Below are positions 2,613-51,349 of a stretch of DNA of 64,000 bases, piece by piece. The notes beneath the pieces are model-generated. The model was given only the letters and a program-made list of their open reading frames with translations. It was not told the DNA's origin and made no database searches. Position 1 is the first letter of the stretch, and each line of letters opens with the position of its first letter. The stretch is taken from positions 2,688 to 66,687 of the IMG/VR virus record IMGVR_UViG_3300031933_000117; one strand, written 5' to 3'. The position numbers and the translations under genes were made by a program. The stretch comes from a virus.

Positions 2613-5131
2613 TCAACCGATAGAAGGAGCAGTTAGAGCAACCGAAGTTGTTTCTGCTGCTGCCAGATCTAAAGGAAAGTTCGCTTAACCCGTAAATTTA
2701 CCATCCTTACGGAGCAGACTATATCATCAACCTATTTCATTAGGTTGTCGGACGCTAATGGTGTATTACATAGGGCGCTCCCTAAACCACCTAGTCGTTG
2801 AACCTTCCTCAAAAGTTCGTTTGAGGCTTGGCTGCTGATTGCCCTTATATTTTGGAGGGGTTCCAGCAATTCATCCGATTTACATCTATCAATTACTTGA
2901 TAGAGCCACCACTTTCTAATGGGCGTTACGTTCATGCCGTTTTTGTTATCGTAAGAACTCTTTATTTCTTACTTCTTACTGTCGCCAGTAAGACCAGACT
3001 ATCTCTTCATCCGTTCTGGATGCTGGGCATTCGTGGGTAGATTATTGTTGGAACTCACTACCTAGTCGTTAGACCTGCCGAAGAACCTATGTCCTCTTCG
3101 GATTGGTACGGGATTGTCTACTTGAGAGTTTCCCCGTTTAACCCAGTTTCGTCAAGGAATATTCCTATTCCAGGGTGACTACATTTCAGAAATCACTTCC
3201 ATACCAAGTCCAGCACGATTTAAAATGTCAGCCCAAGTAGGAATTACTCGGTTTTGACTATCAATAAGAGACTGGTTAAAATTAAAACCGTTGCACTAGA
3301 TCCATAAGTTTACCATACTTGTGGAGTGGACTATATCTTCATCCCAGTAGGATGTCGGACGCTTATTCCTGTTATTAAGGGAACTATATCCCTCAGGTAG
3401 TCTCTGAACCTTTCTTGAGTGTACTCAAGACTTGGATGCTGATTGCCCTTTTATTTTGGAGGGTTTCCAGCAATTCATCCGATGTTTGCCGTTAAATTGC
3501 TTTAACGGAACCCCAATTGAGGTTAAATGCCATCGTGGATACACCAAGAGCGGTGAACCAGATGCCCACAACGGGCCAGGCAGCCAGGAAGAAGTGTAAC
3601 GAACGGGAGTTATTAAAGGAAGCATATTGGAAAATAAGGCGACCAAAATACCCGTGAGCAGCAACGATGTTGTATGTCTCTTCTTCTTGTCCGAACTTAT
3701 ATCCATAATTCTGTGACTCGGTTTCAGTGGTCTCACGAACTAGTGAAGAAGTCACTAGCGAACCGTGCATAGCACTGAAGAGTGAACCACCGAAGACACC
3801 AGCAACTCCAAGCATATGGAATGGGTGCATAAGGATATTATGTTCTGCCTGGAAGACTAGCATGTAATTAAACGTACCAGAAATACCAAGGGGCATAGCG
3901 TCAGAGAAAGAACCTTGACCGAAAGGATACACAAGGAATACAGCACTCGCAGCAGCAACAGGTGCAGAGTAAGCAACCATAATCCAGGGACGCATACCTA
4001 AACGATAGGAGAGTTCCCATTCACGACCCATGTAGCAATAGATGCCGATAAGGAAGTGAAATACAACAAGTTGAAATGGACCTCCATTATACAACCATTC
4101 GTCAAGACTCGCTGCTTCCCAGATAGGATAGAAGTGAAGTCCGATAGCATTTGAACTTGGAACAACAGCACCAGAGATGATGTTGTTTCCGTACATAAGA
4201 GAACCAGCAACTGGTTCACGAATCCCGTCGCTACATCTAACAAACAACCATATCTTTTGACTTAGGTTGCTTCTGTTGACGAATTTGATTTGCTCGTTTT
4301 GCGTTTTCTACTCTTCCACCGTTTTCTACCCACTCTTTCCAAGTTTGTAGGTAAGAAATAGATTCGGTTATTCTCTCTGCTCTTCTTACTCCCATATAAG
4401 GAAGTATTTTTTGTAGAATGAATAATACCTTTTCTTTTTCTCCGATGTGAAGTGTATAAACTTGTTTTCCTGTTACGGTCTTTCTTGATGGTGAAAAATA
4501 AGATTTATCTAAAAGTTTACTCAACCTTTGGATAATATCTTCATCCACCATAGAAATTTTGATAAAAGGTGCTGGTGGAGTATTAGAAACTTCATAACGG
4601 TCTTTGGAACGATTATCTATTCCAAAGTATCCTTCACCTTCTAATAATCCAGCAATCCAAGCAATATCAGTCTCGGTTATGTTTAACATTTTGTTTTTGC
4701 TTCTACTGTACTATTTATACAGCATTAGCAAGAAAAAGTCAACAGTAGATGTGTGGACTATATCTTCACCCTTCATTTTTATTGAAGGGGCTGGGCACTT
4801 AAACCTGTTATTAAGGGAACTATATCCCTCAGGTAGTCTCTGAACCTTTCTTGAGTGTACTCAAGACTTGGCTGCTGATTGCCTTTCGGTTTCCAGCAAT
4901 TCACCCAGTTTCGTCAATACTCTTACGAGTAAGGGACACCGATTAGTTAATGTCTACGGGAGGCGCTCCAACAAACGCAATAATGAAGCAAGTAGTTGCA
5001 GCGAGCAACGTTGGAATCATAAGAACGCCGAACCAACCAACATAAAGGCGGTTGTTCGTGGAAGTAACCCAGGAACAGAAATCGTTCCAGAGATTATTAG
5101 TATTAGAACGTGTAGCAATTGTAGCAGTCAT
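2613..5131 (-). CDS. psbA: Photosystem II D1 protein, 5 exons: 5131-4950, 4230-3520, 3293-3192, 2937-2919, 2681-2613
   Basis: Exon lengths 182+711+102+19+69=1083 nt = 360 aa + stop. Junctions restore PPVD(AT|C)DGIREP, AFN(CT|C)NGFNFNQ, GMEV(AT|G)HERNAH and H|NFPLDLA. Confidence 0.97.
2682..2918 (-). mobile_element. Group I intron 4 of psbA (237 nt, no ORF)
   Basis: 5' exon ends in U (CCAU pairs IGS GUGG with U-G); P10 GAAAGU pairs exon ACUUUC; core AAUUGCUGGAA, AAUCAGCAG, GGUUCAACGACUA, AUAUAGUCU; terminal G. Confidence 0.93.
2938..3191 (-). mobile_element. Group I intron 3 of psbA (254 nt, no ORF)
   Basis: Exon end GUGAU pairs IGS GUCAC (U-G at splice site); core AACGGGGAA/AAUCCCGU, GGUCUAACGACUA, AAGAGAUAGUCU; terminal G. 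Confidence 0.93.
3294..3519 (-). mobile_element. Group I intron 2 of psbA (226 nt, no ORF)
   Basis: Exon end AACCU pairs IGS GGGUU; P10 UUG/CAA; core AAUUGCUGGAAA, AAUCAGCAU, GGUUCAGAGACUA, AAGAUAUAGUCC; terminal G. Confidence 0.95.
4231..4949 (-). mobile_element. Group I intron 1 of psbA (719 nt) carrying a LAGLIDADG ORF near its 3' end
   Basis: Exon end GACAU pairs IGS GUGUC; core AAUUGCUGGAAA, AAUCAGCAG, GGUUCAGAGACUA, AAGAUAUAGUCC; terminal G at 4231. Confidence 0.95.
4237..4689 (-). CDS. Intron-encoded single-motif LAGLIDADG homing endonuclease
   Basis: [23 protein letters not shown]-type helix; inside intron 1 downstream of the S element; late promoter TATAAATA at 4712-4719. Confidence 0.85.
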
Positions 5132-45258: not shown

Positions 45259-45804
45259 TCAAAGATTGCTTTTATGATGCGGAACGTCAAATACAAAAGT
45301 AATTCTAACGTTGTCGCCAATATTAACTGCCTTATGAGGTAGTTTATTATTAAACCAGAAGAGTGTTCCGGGTTCGACAATTATGGTTTCGTCCCCAACA
45401 GTATATTCGTATTTGCCCTGAATGGAAAGATGATATCTGTCTTTTGTAAGATAATAAGTTCCTTCGTCAATATGAGAACCCACAATTTCACCAACTGGAA
45501 GCGCCAGAAACGCACAACGTCGAAGTTTCTTAAAATACTTACTTAAGTAATTAAGAATCTCTGTATGTTTTTCATATGCCGGGGTTTTAATACATATTTC
45601 AGTATTTCCAACATATTGACCTTCAGTCTCAACTCCACCCACAATAAGTTGTAGAACATCCACAGTAACTGTATATTTTGTGGGGTCTAATTGTTCCACA
45701 TCTTTAATATTTTTTTGAGAACCCCAATCTTCTGGATGTTCCTTAAGTTGTTCTAATATTTTAGAGACATTTACATTAGTTTTTATAATGCGAATATTTT
45801 TCAT
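45259..45804 (-). CDS. Aspartyl/asparaginyl beta-hydroxylase-like 2OG-Fe(II) oxygenase
   Basis: SHIDEG, RYHL, FWFNNKLPHKAVN...RITFVFD. Confidence 0.75.
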   Translation of the reverse strand: MKNIRIIKTNVNVSKILEQLKEHPEDWGSQKNIKDVEQLDPTKYTVTVDVLQLIVGGVETEGQYVGNTEICIKTPAYEKHTEILNYLSKYFKKLRRCAFLALPVGEIVGSHIDEGTYYLTKDRYHLSIQGKYEYTVGDETIIVEPGTLFWFNNKLPHKAVNIGDNVRITFVFDVPHHKSNL

Positions 45805-46274
45805 GCTCCATAACTGAAATTACCCTTGGCGATTACATCAAGTTTTTCCATTACTTCTGGCGGAAAATATTTTTCAATATTTTTCAGGATGTCTTTGGCA
45901 TAAAGTTTTTTACCATCAATTTCATATCGTCCGGCAACATTCTTCCACATTCCACCCAATTCACCAAGTTCAAGAAGACCATAATAACGATCAAGACCTC
46001 GTTCATCATAGAACAACCGAATTTGAACCTCTTGATTTTCTTTACTTAAACGAGACTTTTGAGTTTTAGCACGAATGATATTTCCAATTATTTCTGTTCC
46101 ATCTTTTTCTTTTGATTTGGAAAGATAGATGATTGTAGAGGCAGCATATTGTAATCCACTATTATGAGTTACTACACCATTTTCTAAAATATAATTTTCA
46201 TATTTTTCCACGGAGATATCATAAACATCTCCAACGCCAACACTTGTGATGGATTTTATTTTTTTAGTTTTCAT
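45801..46274 (-). CDS. uvsX: UvsX C-terminal part fused to split-intein C fragment (38 aa)
   Basis: MKTKKIKSI...VYDISVEKYENYILENGVVTHN|SGLQYAASTIIYL...KSRL; intein F/G blocks ending HN, Ser+1. Confidence 0.92.
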   Translation of the reverse strand: MKTKKIKSITSVGVGDVYDISVEKYENYILENGVVTHNSGLQYAASTIIYLSKSKEKDGTEIIGNIIRAKTQKSRLSKENQEVQIRLFYDERGLDRYYGLLELGELGGMWKNVAGRYEIDGKKLYAKDILKNIEKYFPPEVMEKLDVIAKGNFSYGA

Positions 46275-46933
46275 AATCTTTCTATCCTTATAATATTGTA
46301 GTTTTTTAATAAATGCTGAAATTGAGATTTAACTAACTTACACCCAAGATGTCCGGATTTCCCCAAATATATCCCCAAATACTTATACTGACTAAAAATA
46401 ATAAATGTACCATCATCGAAATAAACTTTTATGGGATTACTTTTCTTTATTGATAGTATTTTTTTAGTTTCTTCTGTGTGTTTTTTTCCGTAAAATGAAT
46501 TATTATTTAATAAGTTATATTCCTTATTTTTTATACTAATTAATTTTCTAGTTTCTTCAGTATGAGTTTTTCCATAAAATGAATTATTTTTTCCCATACT
46601 ATGAAGTCTATTATTTTCTATTATAGATTGATATATTTTTGAGTTTATTTTAATACAACTTCTACCAGAGTTTTTTCCCATAAATCTAACTAAAGCGCAA
46701 TACATTTTTTTCACATATTGAGACTCTACAGATTTAGAAAGTAACAGATGCGCTATAAAATGTTCTCTGGGGGTTAATAAGACTTTATTAGATGGGTTAT
46801 TACTACCACCCATACATTTTGGAACTATATGGTGAGAGTCATATATTCCACCATCTCCTTTACTCCTATTCATTTGTTTTCTTGTATTTACAAGATTCAT
46901 ATAAGTTTTAGTGTATTTGTTACAATTAAACAC
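46271..46933 (-). CDS. Free-standing HNH homing endonuclease (MobE-like, NUMOD3 repeats) splitting uvsX
   Basis: HHIVPKCMGGSN..SNKVLLTPREHFIAH; two SFYGK.HTEET repeats; late promoter upstream. Confidence 0.88.
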   Translation of the reverse strand: MFNCNKYTKTYMNLVNTRKQMNRSKGDGGIYDSHHIVPKCMGGSNNPSNKVLLTPREHFIAHLLLSKSVESQYVKKMYCALVRFMGKNSGRSCIKINSKIYQSIIENNRLHSMGKNNSFYGKTHTEETRKLISIKNKEYNLLNNNSFYGKKHTEETKKILSIKKSNPIKVYFDDGTFIIFSQYKYLGIYLGKSGHLGCKLVKSQFQHLLKNYNIIRIERL

Positions 46934-46997
46934 AACATAAAATACGAACCTAATACTATTTATAATATTCGTATTTTACACCGATACCGATTATAAG

Positions 46998-47918
46998 TCA
47001 AATACAACAAACTTCATTATCAACAACTAAATCTTTTGCCTCAATCCACATACCATCAATAAAAAATTTATGTTCTGGCGTACAGGTAACTTTATATCCA
47101 TCATCAAATTCTATCTGTAAAAGTTCTTTGTCCTTAAAATTGTGAGTTTCTAAAACTTTCATAAACTCACCTTCTTTTGTATATACAAAATCATTTTCAG
47201 TTATATCTTCGATATTTTTATACCCACCACGAGTAAAAATTTTAGTTCCGGGAGATAAGCACCCCCCGCTCATTTGTTTTCCACCATAAAGAGACATACT
47301 ATCATAGGTGTGATTTGTCACCAGCATAGGAATCTTTGCTTGACCCAGTTTGAGAGTAAGCATACGGAAAGCACCCTTAATCAATTGTGCCTTCGTCATA
47401 TCACGAGTATCCTTCTCCGCAAGAGCATCATTAATCTCTTTATTTGTAGAAAGCATTCCCAAGGAATCCAACACAAAGATACAAGGTTTTCTTTCTTCCT
47501 CCTTTTTCTTAAGGTAAATATCAACTGCCTTAAGTGTCTTGGTGCGAAACTCTTCAACCGTGACTACATTAACGACCACCAAACGATTTATATCAACTCC
47601 ACGAGACTCTAATAGTGATTTAGTAATTGCGGATTCAGTATCAAAGTATAGACAATACCCATCAGGATGAGTATCAAGAAAGTTCTTAACAACAGCGAGA
47701 CTGAAGAAAGTTTTTCCCGTAGAAGTTTCACCCGCGATAGCAGTAATCTTATTGCCAGATACACCACCAAATATACTACCGGATACAAGAGCATTAAAAA
47801 TGTATGAACCCGTATCCACATAAGTTTCAGTTTCATCAATCTCTGATGCGAGTTGCGTATATTCTCCCCCAATCTCCTTTACAATATCTTTAAGAAAACT
47901 TAATCCAGAATCAGTCAT
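46998..47918 (-). CDS. uvsX: UvsX N-terminal part fused to split-intein N fragment (87 aa, 47261-47001)
   Basis: Likely start MTDSG; AGETSTGKT, FDTES, DSLG, TNHTY..MSGG|CLSPGT...CTPEHKF; intein A and B blocks. Confidence 0.92.
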   Translation of the reverse strand: MTDSGLSFLKDIVKEIGGEYTQLASEIDETETYVDTGSYIFNALVSGSIFGGVSGNKITAIAGETSTGKTFFSLAVVKNFLDTHPDGYCLYFDTESAITKSLLESRGVDINRLVVVNVVTVEEFRTKTLKAVDIYLKKKEEERKPCIFVLDSLGMLSTNKEINDALAEKDTRDMTKAQLIKGAFRMLTLKLGQAKIPMLVTNHTYDSMSLYGGKQMSGGCLSPGTKIFTRGGYKNIEDITENDFVYTKEGEFMKVLETHNFKDKELLQIEFDDGYKVTCTPEHKFFIDGMWIEAKDLVVDNEVCCI

Positions 47919-47919
47919 T

Positions 47920-48057
47920 TCATTCCTCCTTTTGTTTTTGTTTGTTGTCATAATTCATCTTATATCGCCAAAGTTTTTGATACAGGGCAACATCTCCACC
48001 TAATCTCATAGCACTAACAATCGTATCAAGTTCTTTTTCGTTAATTGGCAAGTTCAT
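47920..48057 (-). CDS. 45-aa hypothetical protein
   Basis: Read by hand: MNLPINEKELDTIVSAMRLGGDVALYQKLW...; overlaps gp43B stop. Confidence 0.55.
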   Translation of the reverse strand: MNLPINEKELDTIVSAMRLGGDVALYQKLWRYKMNYDNKQKQKEE

Positions 48058-49145
48058 TAGATAAAAAATGAATCAAGGTTTGCTGTATGTTCTGTTTTCC
48101 ATCCAATCGAATCTAAAATAGACTTAAGTGGGTCCAAGAAGCTCTTCTCAAATTGTAGTTCATAATCAATATATTTGTCAAGTCCCAATTCTTTAGGAAA
48201 ATCAGAAATAAAGGAAATGACATTCTCTCGTATGATATTCGGTTTTTTTAAGAAAATATACTTCACTTTCTCTCCATTATTAATAAGTGAATATTTATGA
48301 GTAAGTTTTTTCTCCTTTATATAATGATTAAACAAAAGAGAACCACGAATATGAATTGGAGTTCCTTTTGAGTATATTTCATTACGAGAACTATACTTCC
48401 TTATATCTGACGCTGTTCTGGGAAAGGCAATTTGCTCCGGAGAAAAAGTTCTAAACTCTTGCCGACATTCATTAATAAACTTGATTACCTCATCTTCGGT
48501 TCCACTCATCATAATCTTTAACCCATCCTTAATCATTTTACGACAAGGTGCTGGAGTTGAGGATTTGACCGCCTCAATTCCCATCATCTTGAGTTTTGGT
48601 TCGGCATAACGAACACCTTCACTATCCCAGACATTTAGAATATAACGCTTCTTCGCAGTCCAGATTCCTCGGTCGGCAATATTCTCCCGCTTCATAATCA
48701 TCTTCTGGTCGTAGGCATTCATATACTCCGCTAGTTCCTCATAGCAACCCTGAATATATTTTTCAATTTCGGTCTTACAGATTTTATCAAGAAACGAAAC
48801 AACAGATTCGGTAGTTTTTTTCTTTTCCTTATATACGGCATTTACCAGAGGTCCCATATTCAGGTAAATGGAGTCGGTGTCGGACGCAATCACATAATCA
48901 TAATCCTCAGTTTTAAGTATTTTATTGAAATATCTATTCATCTTATTTTCAATCCAACGAATCGCAACCTGCCCCGAAAGAGTAATCGCTTCGGCATTCT
49001 CAAGTTTATAATACCTGAAGTATTGATTTCCACAAGCACCGTAGGCAGAATTGAGAGATATTTTTTTAGACATCTGAATATTATTACATCTTGAAATCTC
49101 CTTTATAGTTTTTTCCCTCAAAGATTTTAATTGAGAATCGGACAT
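48057..49145 (-). CDS. DNA polymerase gp43, C-terminal subunit (gp43B)
   Basis: Likely start MSDSQL; KISLNSAYG (region III), YVIASDTDSIY (motif C), KKRY, KMMGIEAVKSSTP, C-terminal clamp-binding LDSFF. Confidence 0.9.
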   Translation of the reverse strand: MSDSQLKSLREKTIKEISRCNNIQMSKKISLNSAYGACGNQYFRYYKLENAEAITLSGQVAIRWIENKMNRYFNKILKTEDYDYVIASDTDSIYLNMGPLVNAVYKEKKKTTESVVSFLDKICKTEIEKYIQGCYEELAEYMNAYDQKMIMKRENIADRGIWTAKKRYILNVWDSEGVRYAEPKLKMMGIEAVKSSTPAPCRKMIKDGLKIMMSGTEDEVIKFINECRQEFRTFSPEQIAFPRTASDIRKYSSRNEIYSKGTPIHIRGSLLFNHYIKEKKLTHKYSLINNGEKVKYIFLKKPNIIRENVISFISDFPKELGLDKYIDYELQFEKSFLDPLKSILDSIGWKTEHTANLDSFFI

Positions 49146-49146
49146 T

Positions 49147-49851
49147 TCAGATAAGTTCACATTTCCATCCCTTTGCTTTACCTTTTGTAATAACTTTACC
49201 ATTTTTACTACTACTAACCCAAAGAGTAGAATGAGGTAAATTATTTTCTTTACACCAGTCTTCTAATCTATTGGTAATAATTTCTTCACCAATTGGAGAC
49301 GTTATTTTAAATGTTGAAGATAAACAATCTCTCATATGATCTTTATTTTCTTTCCAGTGGTTAGTAGACCAATCTCTCATAAATTCAGAATGTTCTGGTC
49401 TTTTTTTACCAGTATTAACTTCAAGTGCTTTTTTTAAGTTTTCTTTTGCTATACTAACATATTTTGGATTTCCAGTTTTAAGTTTTTTTTGAGATTCTGA
49501 AACTTTATTTCTAACTTCTAATGATTTTTTCATAGGATTATTATCTCCCTTACATAAACCATTAGCATTTACATAGTTCCAACCACCTTTTCCACCAACA
49601 TTCATATTATAGCATTTATCTTTTTTATAATGCTCCTCAACTATTTTTTCTTCTTTTAAATACATTTCATTTTCCTCATTACAAAATTCAACTATTTCTC
49701 TATAAAAATTTTCTTTACCATGTTTTTCTATTGCCTTTTTTAAAGCAACACCAGAACCTAAATATTCATCATTTATGTTTTTAGTGGAGTGTGCTCCATA
49801 ATAGTACTTACCATTTTTCATATTTGTTGTTTTGTATATGAAATAATACAT
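49147..49851 (-). CDS. Free-standing GIY-YIG (Seg-like) homing endonuclease splitting gp43
   Basis: FIYKTTN..NGKYYYGAH...YLGSG, ENFYREI, YNM..GG; late promoter upstream. Confidence 0.88.
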   Translation of the reverse strand: MYYFIYKTTNMKNGKYYYGAHSTKNINDEYLGSGVALKKAIEKHGKENFYREIVEFCNEENEMYLKEEKIVEEHYKKDKCYNMNVGGKGGWNYVNANGLCKGDNNPMKKSLEVRNKVSESQKKLKTGNPKYVSIAKENLKKALEVNTGKKRPEHSEFMRDWSTNHWKENKDHMRDCLSSTFKITSPIGEEIITNRLEDWCKENNLPHSTLWVSSSKNGKVITKGKAKGWKCELI

Positions 49852-49879
49852 CTAAAATACCTGTTTCCTACAGCACTAT

Positions 49880-51349
49880 TTATAATAGTTTCCTTTTTTT
49901 CATTTCCGATTCAATTTGCTCCAATTCTTTTTTTTCCTTAATCATCAGGTCCTTATACACAACGCGGTCGTTATACATTTTCTCCATGAGTTCGGGAAGG
50001 AATCCCCTCACATCTTTACGATACATCGCACCATTAGGACATACCGCATAGTCCTTATACTTCTCAAAAGTTAGTTCTTGGTTGAGAATCTTATCTACAG
50101 TTACGGTGGGGTGCCTTTTATCAACAAGAGTTTCTGGACTCACGTTAAATTCCATAATTAAATGCGGATAAAGTGAATTCAAATCGAAATTAACGACCCA
50201 ATCATAAACTCCGGGTACGGGTTCTTTTACATAGGCACCAGCATACTTTTCACTTTTTTCTGATTTAGTTTTAGGAGGAATTACAATATTCCTATCCTTA
50301 AGATAATTGTAAATGATAGTATCCCACATAGAAACTTGAGAGAATACATCATTATAATTAACCTTGGCATCATATGCCATCGTAAGTGCCAGTTCAATTA
50401 GTTTCATCTTGTCTTCCAATCGGTCAACAAGTTCTACGTCCTTTATGTTATACTCACAAAATTTCTGCCAACCTTTGGTATAAAAATCCTTAAAGGTATC
50501 AAACTCGGAGTGGTCCAGTTTTTTCTGCCCGAGTTCCACTTCGGCAATATAATCCAGACGATATGATTCCTGTGCCTTATAGGTAAACTTTTTATAAAGA
50601 TCCAAATAATCTAATTGTGATATGCCACCAATATTATAATAGATTTGATTTCTTCCCAAAACAAATGTCTCCTTTTCGGATACTATTCCCCACGGAGAAA
50701 TACGCTTCATTAACTTTTCGCCAAGTATTTTTTCGAGACGACGAACCAAATAAGGAATATCGTAAAACATACTATTCCATCCAGTAATAACCTCTGGTGT
50801 ATTTTCCTCAATCATCCACCAGCAAATAAAATCATTTAACAGATCATACTCGGAAGAAAATTGCCGGTAAGTAACATTTTTTTGATTATTTTGATAAGGT
50901 CCAAGTCCCCAAGTTCGGATTTGTTTTGTATTGTAATCCTGTAAAGTAATCAAAAGAACCTCTTCTGCTGCGGATTCTACATCAGGAAATCCATTCTCCG
51001 ATGCGACCTCAATATCAATAGTGGTTAGTTTAATTTTACCAATATCAAACTTAATTTCAGTTTCTGGATATTTGTCAGAAATGTATTGATAAATGTACCG
51101 GTCATTCCCATAGATTTTAAAGTTTTCTACATTATCATACTTTTTAAGAAACTCTCTACATTCTTTTACCGAACCCGGTTGAATAGATTCTACATATTCT
51201 CCCTGAAGTGTTTTATATTTGGTTGGTTTTTTAGACGAAACAAAAAGAGTTGGAGAAAACTTTTCACGAGTCATAAAGTGGTTTCCGTCTTTATAACCTC
51301 TAACTAAAAAGTAATCTCCAATCATAAGTACATTTGTATAAAAATTCAT
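49880..51349 (-). CDS. DNA polymerase gp43, N-terminal subunit (gp43A: exonuclease + motif A)
   Basis: DIEV, TGWN..FYDIPY, YNIKDV exonuclease motifs; FDLNSLYP; stops after helical tail in fingers domain. Confidence 0.9.
   Translation of the reverse strand: MNFYTNVLMIGDYFLVRGYKDGNHFMTREKFSPTLFVSSKKPTKYKTLQGEYVESIQPGSVKECREFLKKYDNVENFKIYGNDRYIYQYISDKYPETEIKFDIGKIKLTTIDIEVASENGFPDVESAAEEVLLITLQDYNTKQIRTWGLGPYQNNQKNVTYRQFSSEYDLLNDFICWWMIEENTPEVITGWNSMFYDIPYLVRRLEKILGEKLMKRISPWGIVSEKETFVLGRNQIYYNIGGISQLDYLDLYKKFTYKAQESYRLDYIAEVELGQKKLDHSEFDTFKDFYTKGWQKFCEYNIKDVELVDRLEDKMKLIELALTMAYDAKVNYNDVFSQVSMWDTIIYNYLKDRNIVIPPKTKSEKSEKYAGAYVKEPVPGVYDWVVNFDLNSLYPHLIMEFNVSPETLVDKRHPTVTVDKILNQELTFEKYKDYAVCPNGAMYRKDVRGFLPELMEKMYNDRVVYKDLMIKEKKELEQIESEMKKRKLL

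Follow-up and report, generated by a model that had tools for sequence, protein, structure and literature searches.

How could a phage obtain a functional recombinase from a uvsX gene that is interrupted inside its ATPase core? This question is raised by a locus of IMG/VR virus record IMGVR_UViG_3300031933_000117, from which a stretch of 64,000 nucleotides (positions 2,688 to 66,687 of the record; hereafter the window, to which all coordinates refer) was analysed. In the window, uvsX lies in two genes with a gene for a free-standing endonuclease between them, and the two uvsX genes carry the two fragments of an apparent split intein at their facing ends. Sequence comparison and complex prediction together make it highly probable that this is a fractured uvsX, in which a mobile HNH/NUMOD3 cassette occupies the position between Gly-Gly and Ser at the end of the L2 region, and that UvsX is rebuilt by protein trans-splicing.

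All cassette and uvsX features are on the minus strand, in the order uvsX N-extein with the N-terminal intein fragment (IntN), spacer, HNH/NUMOD3 gene, and C-terminal intein fragment (IntC) with the uvsX C-extein:

46998-47918, minus strand: uvsX N half, 306 amino acids from the ATG at 47918
47262-47918, minus strand: uvsX N-extein, 219 codons, with Walker A and TNHTY, ending in ...KQMSGG
46998-47261, minus strand: IntN, 87 codons, CLSPGT...TPEH...VCCI, with the TGA stop at 46998-47000
47259-47261, minus strand: Cys1 of IntN, the first residue after Gly-Gly (Cys231 of protein P0001)
46934-46997, minus strand: spacer of 64 nucleotides, non-coding
46271-46933, minus strand: free-standing HNH endonuclease gene, 220 amino acids, GTG start, two NUMOD3
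45801-46274, minus strand: uvsX C half, 157 amino acids, MKTKKI...VVTHN and then SGLQY
46161-46274, minus strand: IntC, 38 codons, MKTKKI...VVTHN
45801-46160, minus strand: uvsX C-extein, 119 codons from Ser+1 (SGLQYAAS...), plus the stop

The open reading frames of the N half, the endonuclease and the C half are each in a different frame, and the TGA of the endonuclease gene overlaps the ATG of IntC (ATGA). A GGAGG is located 7 nucleotides upstream of the N-half ATG at 47918, and an alternative in-frame ATG at 47951 gives an N half of 317 amino acids. A single uvsX was found in the 70.7-kb record. A preliminary description of the window, made from its letters alone, had placed a uvsX broken into two genes around an HNH gene at these coordinates, with an 87-residue IntN, a 38-residue IntC, Ser+1 and the ATGA overlap. 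The layout, the overlap and the fragment lengths were recovered as described.

The host protein was identified from the N half, which was matched by PHROG 97 (UvsX-like, expect value (E) 5.7e-73) and by Pfam RecA. The N-extein aligned with residues 1-215 of the intact UvsX of Synechococcus phage S-B68, while the C half was ~80% identical to intact cyanophage UvsX in alignments that began exactly at residue 39. When the two exteins were joined and compared with the intact UvsX of Synechococcus phages S-B68 and S-SM2, there was neither gap nor overlap, and ...KEMGGG/SGLKY... of the intact protein stood against ...KQMSGG and SGLQY... of the joined exteins (a slash marks the insertion point here and below). 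Removal of both fragments thus rebuilds UvsX seamlessly, as had been noted. The insertion point is the conserved Gly-Gly at which L2, the DNA-binding loop region, ends, corresponding to G218/S219 of a solved phage UvsX (9gbg). The search for intact orthologs that the preliminary description had recommended also returned six close uncultured relatives (L065-L067, L074, L103 and L109; C-extein 90-96% identical), in which the empty site ...SMSLYGGKQMSGGSGLQYAAS... is uninterrupted.

An unusual stretch of the N-extein, SMSLY-GGKQMSGG, was considered as a feature linked to the intein and was rejected, given that the empty-site relatives carry the same stretch. No consistent signature of synonymous codons at the insertion site, which could have pointed to immunity of the endonuclease target, separated alleles with the intein from those lacking it, and both types of Ser codon occurred in both groups.

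Each intein fragment alone matched the Pfam Intein_splicing model below threshold. Scored across both halves, the model gave 58.5 bits against a cut-off of 35.8; IntC corresponded to model positions 121-155 (E 7e-7). Among solved structures, IntN matched the gp41-1 intein best (6qaz, E 8.5e-7), at roughly one third identity, and the Pho RadA intein was among the weak matches in the PDB. A search of 5.8 billion proteins with IntN returned 107, nearly all of them 301-306-residue fusions of UvsX-N and IntN from JGI, ENA, NCBI and Logan assemblies that were 60-100% identical over IntN, and the IntC search returned 190, mostly of 156-159 residues. The IntN homologues end at a common place, with IntN lengths of 87-94 residues. 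The break is the same in more than 100 N-half and 120 C-half protein clusters of independent metagenomes, and the reading frames are intact in more than 100 variants. Cys1 and the preceding Gly-Gly were invariant (105 of 105 N-half homologues), as were the His of block B (TPEH in the window) and, as Thr or Ser, its first residue (105 of 105 each); the terminal His-Asn and Ser+1 (THN/S) were invariant in all 120 C-half homologues. The window therefore has the marks of a class-1 intein made as separate polypeptides: Cys1, T-x-x-H, and His-Asn followed by a nucleophile.

Association of the halves was examined by complex prediction with residues 224-317 of P0001 as IntN and residues 1-50 of P0002 as IntC. 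Three runs gave scores of 0.80, 0.80 and 0.78 (best control 0.01), which, since solved split inteins exist, show likeness to those inteins rather than prove binding. At least 88% of contacts agreed between runs, and the partner predicted local distance difference test (pLDDT) was at least 75. In a benchmark, 51 of 78 solved complexes and 2 of 108 mismatched pairs attained a score of 0.80. IntN and IntC are thus predicted to bind each other.

Selection on the parts was estimated as the ratio of nonsynonymous to synonymous rates (dN/dS, pairwise Nei-Gojobori). Values were 0.05-0.3 for IntN, 0-0.2 for IntC, 0.04-0.18 for the exteins and 0.15-0.3 for the endonuclease, rising to ~0.5 for the endonuclease against the most divergent allele, L058. 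All of these parts are under purifying selection.

From these observations we infer the following course. Two polypeptides, UvsX(1-219)-IntN and IntC-UvsX(220-338), would be made, and IntN and IntC would come together in a Hint fold that performs class-1 protein splicing. A thioester would form at Cys1, the N-extein would move to Ser+1, the terminal Asn would cyclise with the preceding His assisting, and an O-to-N acyl shift would complete the bond. The expected product is a normal 338-residue recombinase of ~37 kDa with the tryptic junction peptide QMSGGSGLQYAASTIIYLSK. The proposal of the preliminary description that UvsX is assembled by trans-splicing is accordingly well supported at the level of sequence, where everything that such a process would demand is in place: invariant residues, selection, predicted binding, a seamless junction and a single uvsX.

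An improbable alternative is that the intein halves do not splice and instead hold UvsX together as a two-chain recombinase by a tight non-covalent clamp. The predicted high-confidence binding of the halves would serve a clamp equally, and the neighbouring DNA polymerase of the same phage is split without an intein, so two-chain enzymes are tolerated in this phage. However, Cys1, the block-B His, the His-Asn pair and Ser+1 are invariant across the 105 and 120 variants whereas neighbouring positions vary, a pattern that would arise only if the splicing chemistry were in use, and the break interrupts the ATPase core in its L2/strand region. Less credible still is a uvsX that has been disrupted and is decaying, with the halves as remnants. 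Such decay would agree with the interruption of the gene and with the truncation or loss of the endonuclease in some alleles (L059, L006 and L007), but dN/dS of the exteins and intein halves stays at 0.04-0.3 over saturated synonymous distances, frames are undamaged throughout the variants, and alleles that lack the endonuclease retain both intact halves.

The preliminary description had also named, as a general possibility only, that assembly or sequencing error had broken up what is really one uninterrupted intein carrying its endonuclease domain in frame. This has next to no probability, given that three open reading frames in three frames are not a single frame broken by one error, that a non-coding spacer separates two of them, and that the same stops and starts are present in independent JGI, ENA, NCBI and Logan assemblies. 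Sequencing runs of 14 studies, on samples of marine, freshwater and other aquatic origin, also contained parts of the window, and in one run eight of the nine contigs placed on the window were at least 99% identical to it. Reconstitution of UvsX by trans-splicing from a mobile cassette is therefore preferred. Against it weigh the weak GTG start of the endonuclease, which has no clear Shine-Dalgarno sequence, and the record itself, which covers ~34% of the genome, so that a second intact uvsX may lie elsewhere. Part of the complex score may come from solved split inteins, gp41-1 for example, that the prediction model has memorised, and the RNA contigs over the endonuclease described below could be DNA carry-over.

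The endonuclease was matched by NUMOD3 (E 1.1e-12) and by PHROG 655, annotated 'homing endonuclease' (E 4.6e-37), while Pfam HNH_4 gave 17 bits, below its 22-bit cut-off. A motif SHHI.PK..GGS...N.V.LTP.EHF..H (His-His...Asn...His) was invariant in 10 endonuclease alleles. The protein was ~35% identical to T4/T6 Mob-type genes, with matches at five places in T4, and a sequence search of the PDB returned no match. The label 'MobE-like' given in the preliminary description is better replaced by an HNH protein resembling the T4 Mob family, with two NUMOD3 motifs. Its GTG start is an ATG at the same position in other alleles.

The same description had assigned the gene its own late promoter. The motif TATAAATA is indeed located before the endonuclease (46957-46964), but in the loop of a hairpin (46937-46979, -14.2 kcal/mol, z -2.4) whose 3' arm ends 4 nucleotides before the GTG. 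The motif is over-represented in the window, with 16 sites where 6.8 would be expected, a count that none of 100 shuffles reached, and 14 of the 16 are on the coding (minus) strand. L008, L056 and L060 carry hairpins of different sequence in the corresponding position, immediately ahead of an ATG at the same codon position. In T4 and Aeh1 endonuclease genes, read-through transcripts fold and translation is blocked, and late transcripts start within the hairpin (PMC2988022); a hairpin with a late promoter is also present in fractured genes (PMC2677866). The endonuclease of the window would thus probably be made late, with the hairpin formed on read-through transcripts and late-promoter transcripts free of the 5' arm. 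RNA-library contigs identical to 46582-46975 were recovered from run X15. Elsewhere in the window, a stable hairpin at 4690-4745 on the minus strand (-14.9 kcal/mol, z -3.2) holds TATAAATA in its loop at 4712-4719, the same promoter-in-hairpin design as that before the HNH gene.

Once made, the endonuclease would be expected to cleave or nick those uvsX alleles of co-infecting phages that lack the intein, after which repair by recombination would copy the cassette together with flanking extein DNA into them. Comparison with L003 bears on this proposal. The cassette (~47300 to 46200) was 98-100% identical between the two, with synonymous distances (dS) of 0.065 for IntN, 0.026 for the HNH gene and 0 for IntC against 0.30 and 0.40 for the flanking exteins. 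Away from the cassette, identity dropped in steps in both directions, reaching 84-87% within 300 nucleotides downstream, and the DNA polymerase gene was 58-84% identical. High identity of a cassette with decaying flanks is the pattern expected of recent homing with co-conversion, and on these alignments the cassette looks actively mobile. Two alleles coexist in one sample: in DNA run X3, a 993-nucleotide IntC-HNH-IntN contig with zero differences from the window occurs beside a second contig from which 46159-47270 is missing and whose joint encodes Met-Ser-Gly-Gly-Ser, the intein-less allele. The intein-less form was also present in metatranscriptome X16.

The three-gene layout with an endonuclease of 216-220 amino acids was kept in eight divergent loci (L005, L008, L009, L010, L056, L058, L060 and L145), in alleles as low as 60% identity, and the ATGA overlap was kept in most of the eight. 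In L006 and L007, the endonuclease gene has been removed by a clean deletion, and a 54-nucleotide spacer remains, with stop codons that keep the intein split. The first ~70 IntN residues of these two loci are 99% like those of the window against a background of 65-80% identity, a pattern that alignment attributes to recombination inside the intein. In L059, the endonuclease is shortened to 157 amino acids. Among the best 80 loci of a C-extein scan, 75 were intact and 5 lay at contig ends, and an IntN scan returned at least 10 loci with the IntN allele of the window (73-100% identical), several of them ended by the contig. The split allele therefore looks like a small minority in IMG/VR, with the scan numbers to be taken as bounds only. 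Together, empty site, invasion, co-conversion, maintenance, endonuclease decay, loss and intra-intein recombination make the cycle of a homing element visible in field data.

T4-type homing requires UvsX (PMC2988022), which means that the cassette sits in the gene on which it depends. Strong selection for efficient splicing would be expected of a cassette so placed.

Some sister phages carry uvsX in three pieces (L146:723-3133, L145:3-2097 and L005:1848-3445). The first piece is an open reading frame of 93-94 amino acids that ends GETSTGK/CARGSEK..., with an IntN of 25-28 residues at the Walker-A lysine. It is followed by a gene of 322-329 amino acids with a weak T5orf172/MUG113-like C-terminus, which in L005 is down to a 92-residue remnant. 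The second piece begins with a 131-residue IntC ending HHN/TFFSLAV and ends in an 87-residue IntN of the window type. These loci thus hold two fractured-gene cassettes in one gene, one atypically split and the other canonical. We consider the chances about even that the cassette is homing today among aquatic cyanophages in the very recombinase that homing needs, and that in L005, L145 and L146 this intein and the unrelated, atypically split one at the Walker-A lysine, as two naturally orthogonal inteins, join three polypeptides into UvsX. If true, this would be a natural tandem trans-splicing system, directly usable for three-piece protein ligation.

Other relatives of the intein were observed in metagenomes. 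P0106, from a 996-bp contig, is a contiguous mini-intein that lacks an endonuclease domain and interrupts a T4-like UvsX at the same site (GG/C...HN/T). Its identity to IntN is 47%, it exceeds the Pfam cut-off for Intein_splicing (45.8 bits), and it may resemble the unsplit ancestor. A single-sequence AlphaFold2 model of this cousin (P0106:5-175) had a pLDDT of 36 and was unusable. P0100 (421 amino acids) is a chimera in which ~360 residues with no Pfam match run on in frame into the final ~60 residues of IntN, probably as a remnant of rearrangement. The UvsX intein family therefore includes contiguous, endonuclease-free and chimeric relatives.

The source virus is an uncultured T4-like cyanophage: its UvsX exteins are ~80% identical to UvsX of Synechococcus myoviruses, and the order gp43, uvsX, 2-oxoglutarate (2OG)-oxygenase, gp41 is that of the same myoviruses. 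Two neighbours of the cassette are described here:

45259-45804, minus strand: cupin/2OG-oxygenase-like gene (PHROG 32420), between uvsX-C and gp41
48057-51349, minus strand: gp43 DNA polymerase in two open reading frames, with a GIY-YIG/SegE-like gene at 49147-49851 between them

The cupin/2OG-oxygenase-like gene is not present in the otherwise close relatives L002, L003, L005 and L009 and is a variable insert adjoining the cassette. No Hint signature was found in the split gp43, and TATAAATA is located immediately upstream of its GIY-YIG gene (49877-49884). In relatives L057, L058 and L060, the polymerase is unsplit and 831-854 amino acids long.

The layout belongs with known fractured genes, as the preliminary description had stated. 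Dassa et al. (2009) described such genes from ocean metagenomes, in gp41 (gp41-1 to -9), NrdA, NrdJ, IMPDH, DnaE, ligase, gp17 and one unknown protein (PMC2677866). As in the window, a free-standing endonuclease gene lies there between the split-intein halves and on their strand, preceded by a hairpin that contains TATAAATA; the 3' end of that gene overlaps the start of IntC, endonuclease-free alleles exist, and the hosts are cyanomyoviruses. The set differs from the window in its endonucleases, which are Vsr-like or GIY-YIG rather than HNH/NUMOD3, and in the host gene, since uvsX appears there only as an intact neighbour (PMC2677866); in the open-access literature, no paper describing a split intein in UvsX was found. 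The IntN of the window is only about one third identical to that of gp41-1, and its 87+38 residues correspond to the canonical split position. The fragments of gp41-1 are ~88+37 residues. Two IMPDH N-halves were also observed whose terminal IntN has 35-39% identity to that of the window (L018:3452-4764 and L022:3416-4327, with NUMOD3-like matches downstream in L018); they probably represent the fractured IMPDH gene that Dassa et al. described.

Other comparisons are more distant. In nrdA of Aeh1, as reported from Gibb and Edgell in PMC2988022 and PMC2677866, a Mob-type HNH gene (mobE) splits an essential gene and a hairpin with a late promoter controls the endonuclease, as in the window; according to those citations there is, unlike in the window, no intein, and the NrdA halves assemble non-covalently. 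Mycobacterial RecA and archaeal RadA inteins also interrupt the RecA/RadA ATPase core but are contiguous. They occupy other sites (the P-loop for RadA). AceL TerL and VidaL are cited in PMC13014065 as natural phage split inteins with an IntN of 16-25 residues (Thiel et al. 2014, Burton et al. 2020). Such atypical inteins with a short IntN resemble the P-loop intein of L005, L145 and L146, not the canonical one of the window. Thiel and colleagues reportedly also described, in 2014, atypically split UvsX inteins from Lake Vida.

To our knowledge, the split inteins of cyanophage fractured genes (gp41-1, NrdJ-1 and IMPDH-1) are the fastest protein ligases known. A canonically split family with Ser+1 and more than 100 natural variants is a ready source of new ligation tools, and the UvsX split intein may be orthogonal to existing inteins.

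The suggestion in the preliminary description that UvsX had not been seen as a host of this layout did not hold. Neither IntN nor IntC was found in cultured cyanophages among 50,697 phage records, but in Proteus phage vB_PmiM_Pm5461 (KP890823) and many T4-like enterobacterial phages, uvsX is split at the same site. GenBank annotates the halves in Pm5461 as just two RecA-like proteins. The Pm5461 type shares with the window the site (..GG/C...HN/T or S), the three-gene layout and a homologous intein (IntN 39-42% and IntC 65% identical). It differs in its phages, which are Straboviridae rather than cyanophage relatives of Kyanoviridae, and in its endonuclease gene, which in Pm5461 encodes a NUMOD3 protein with no match to a Pfam nuclease domain. 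New in the window, when set beside these systems, are a cyanophage branch of the split-uvsX intein family, its HNH/NUMOD3 endonuclease and the population-level evidence for mobility.

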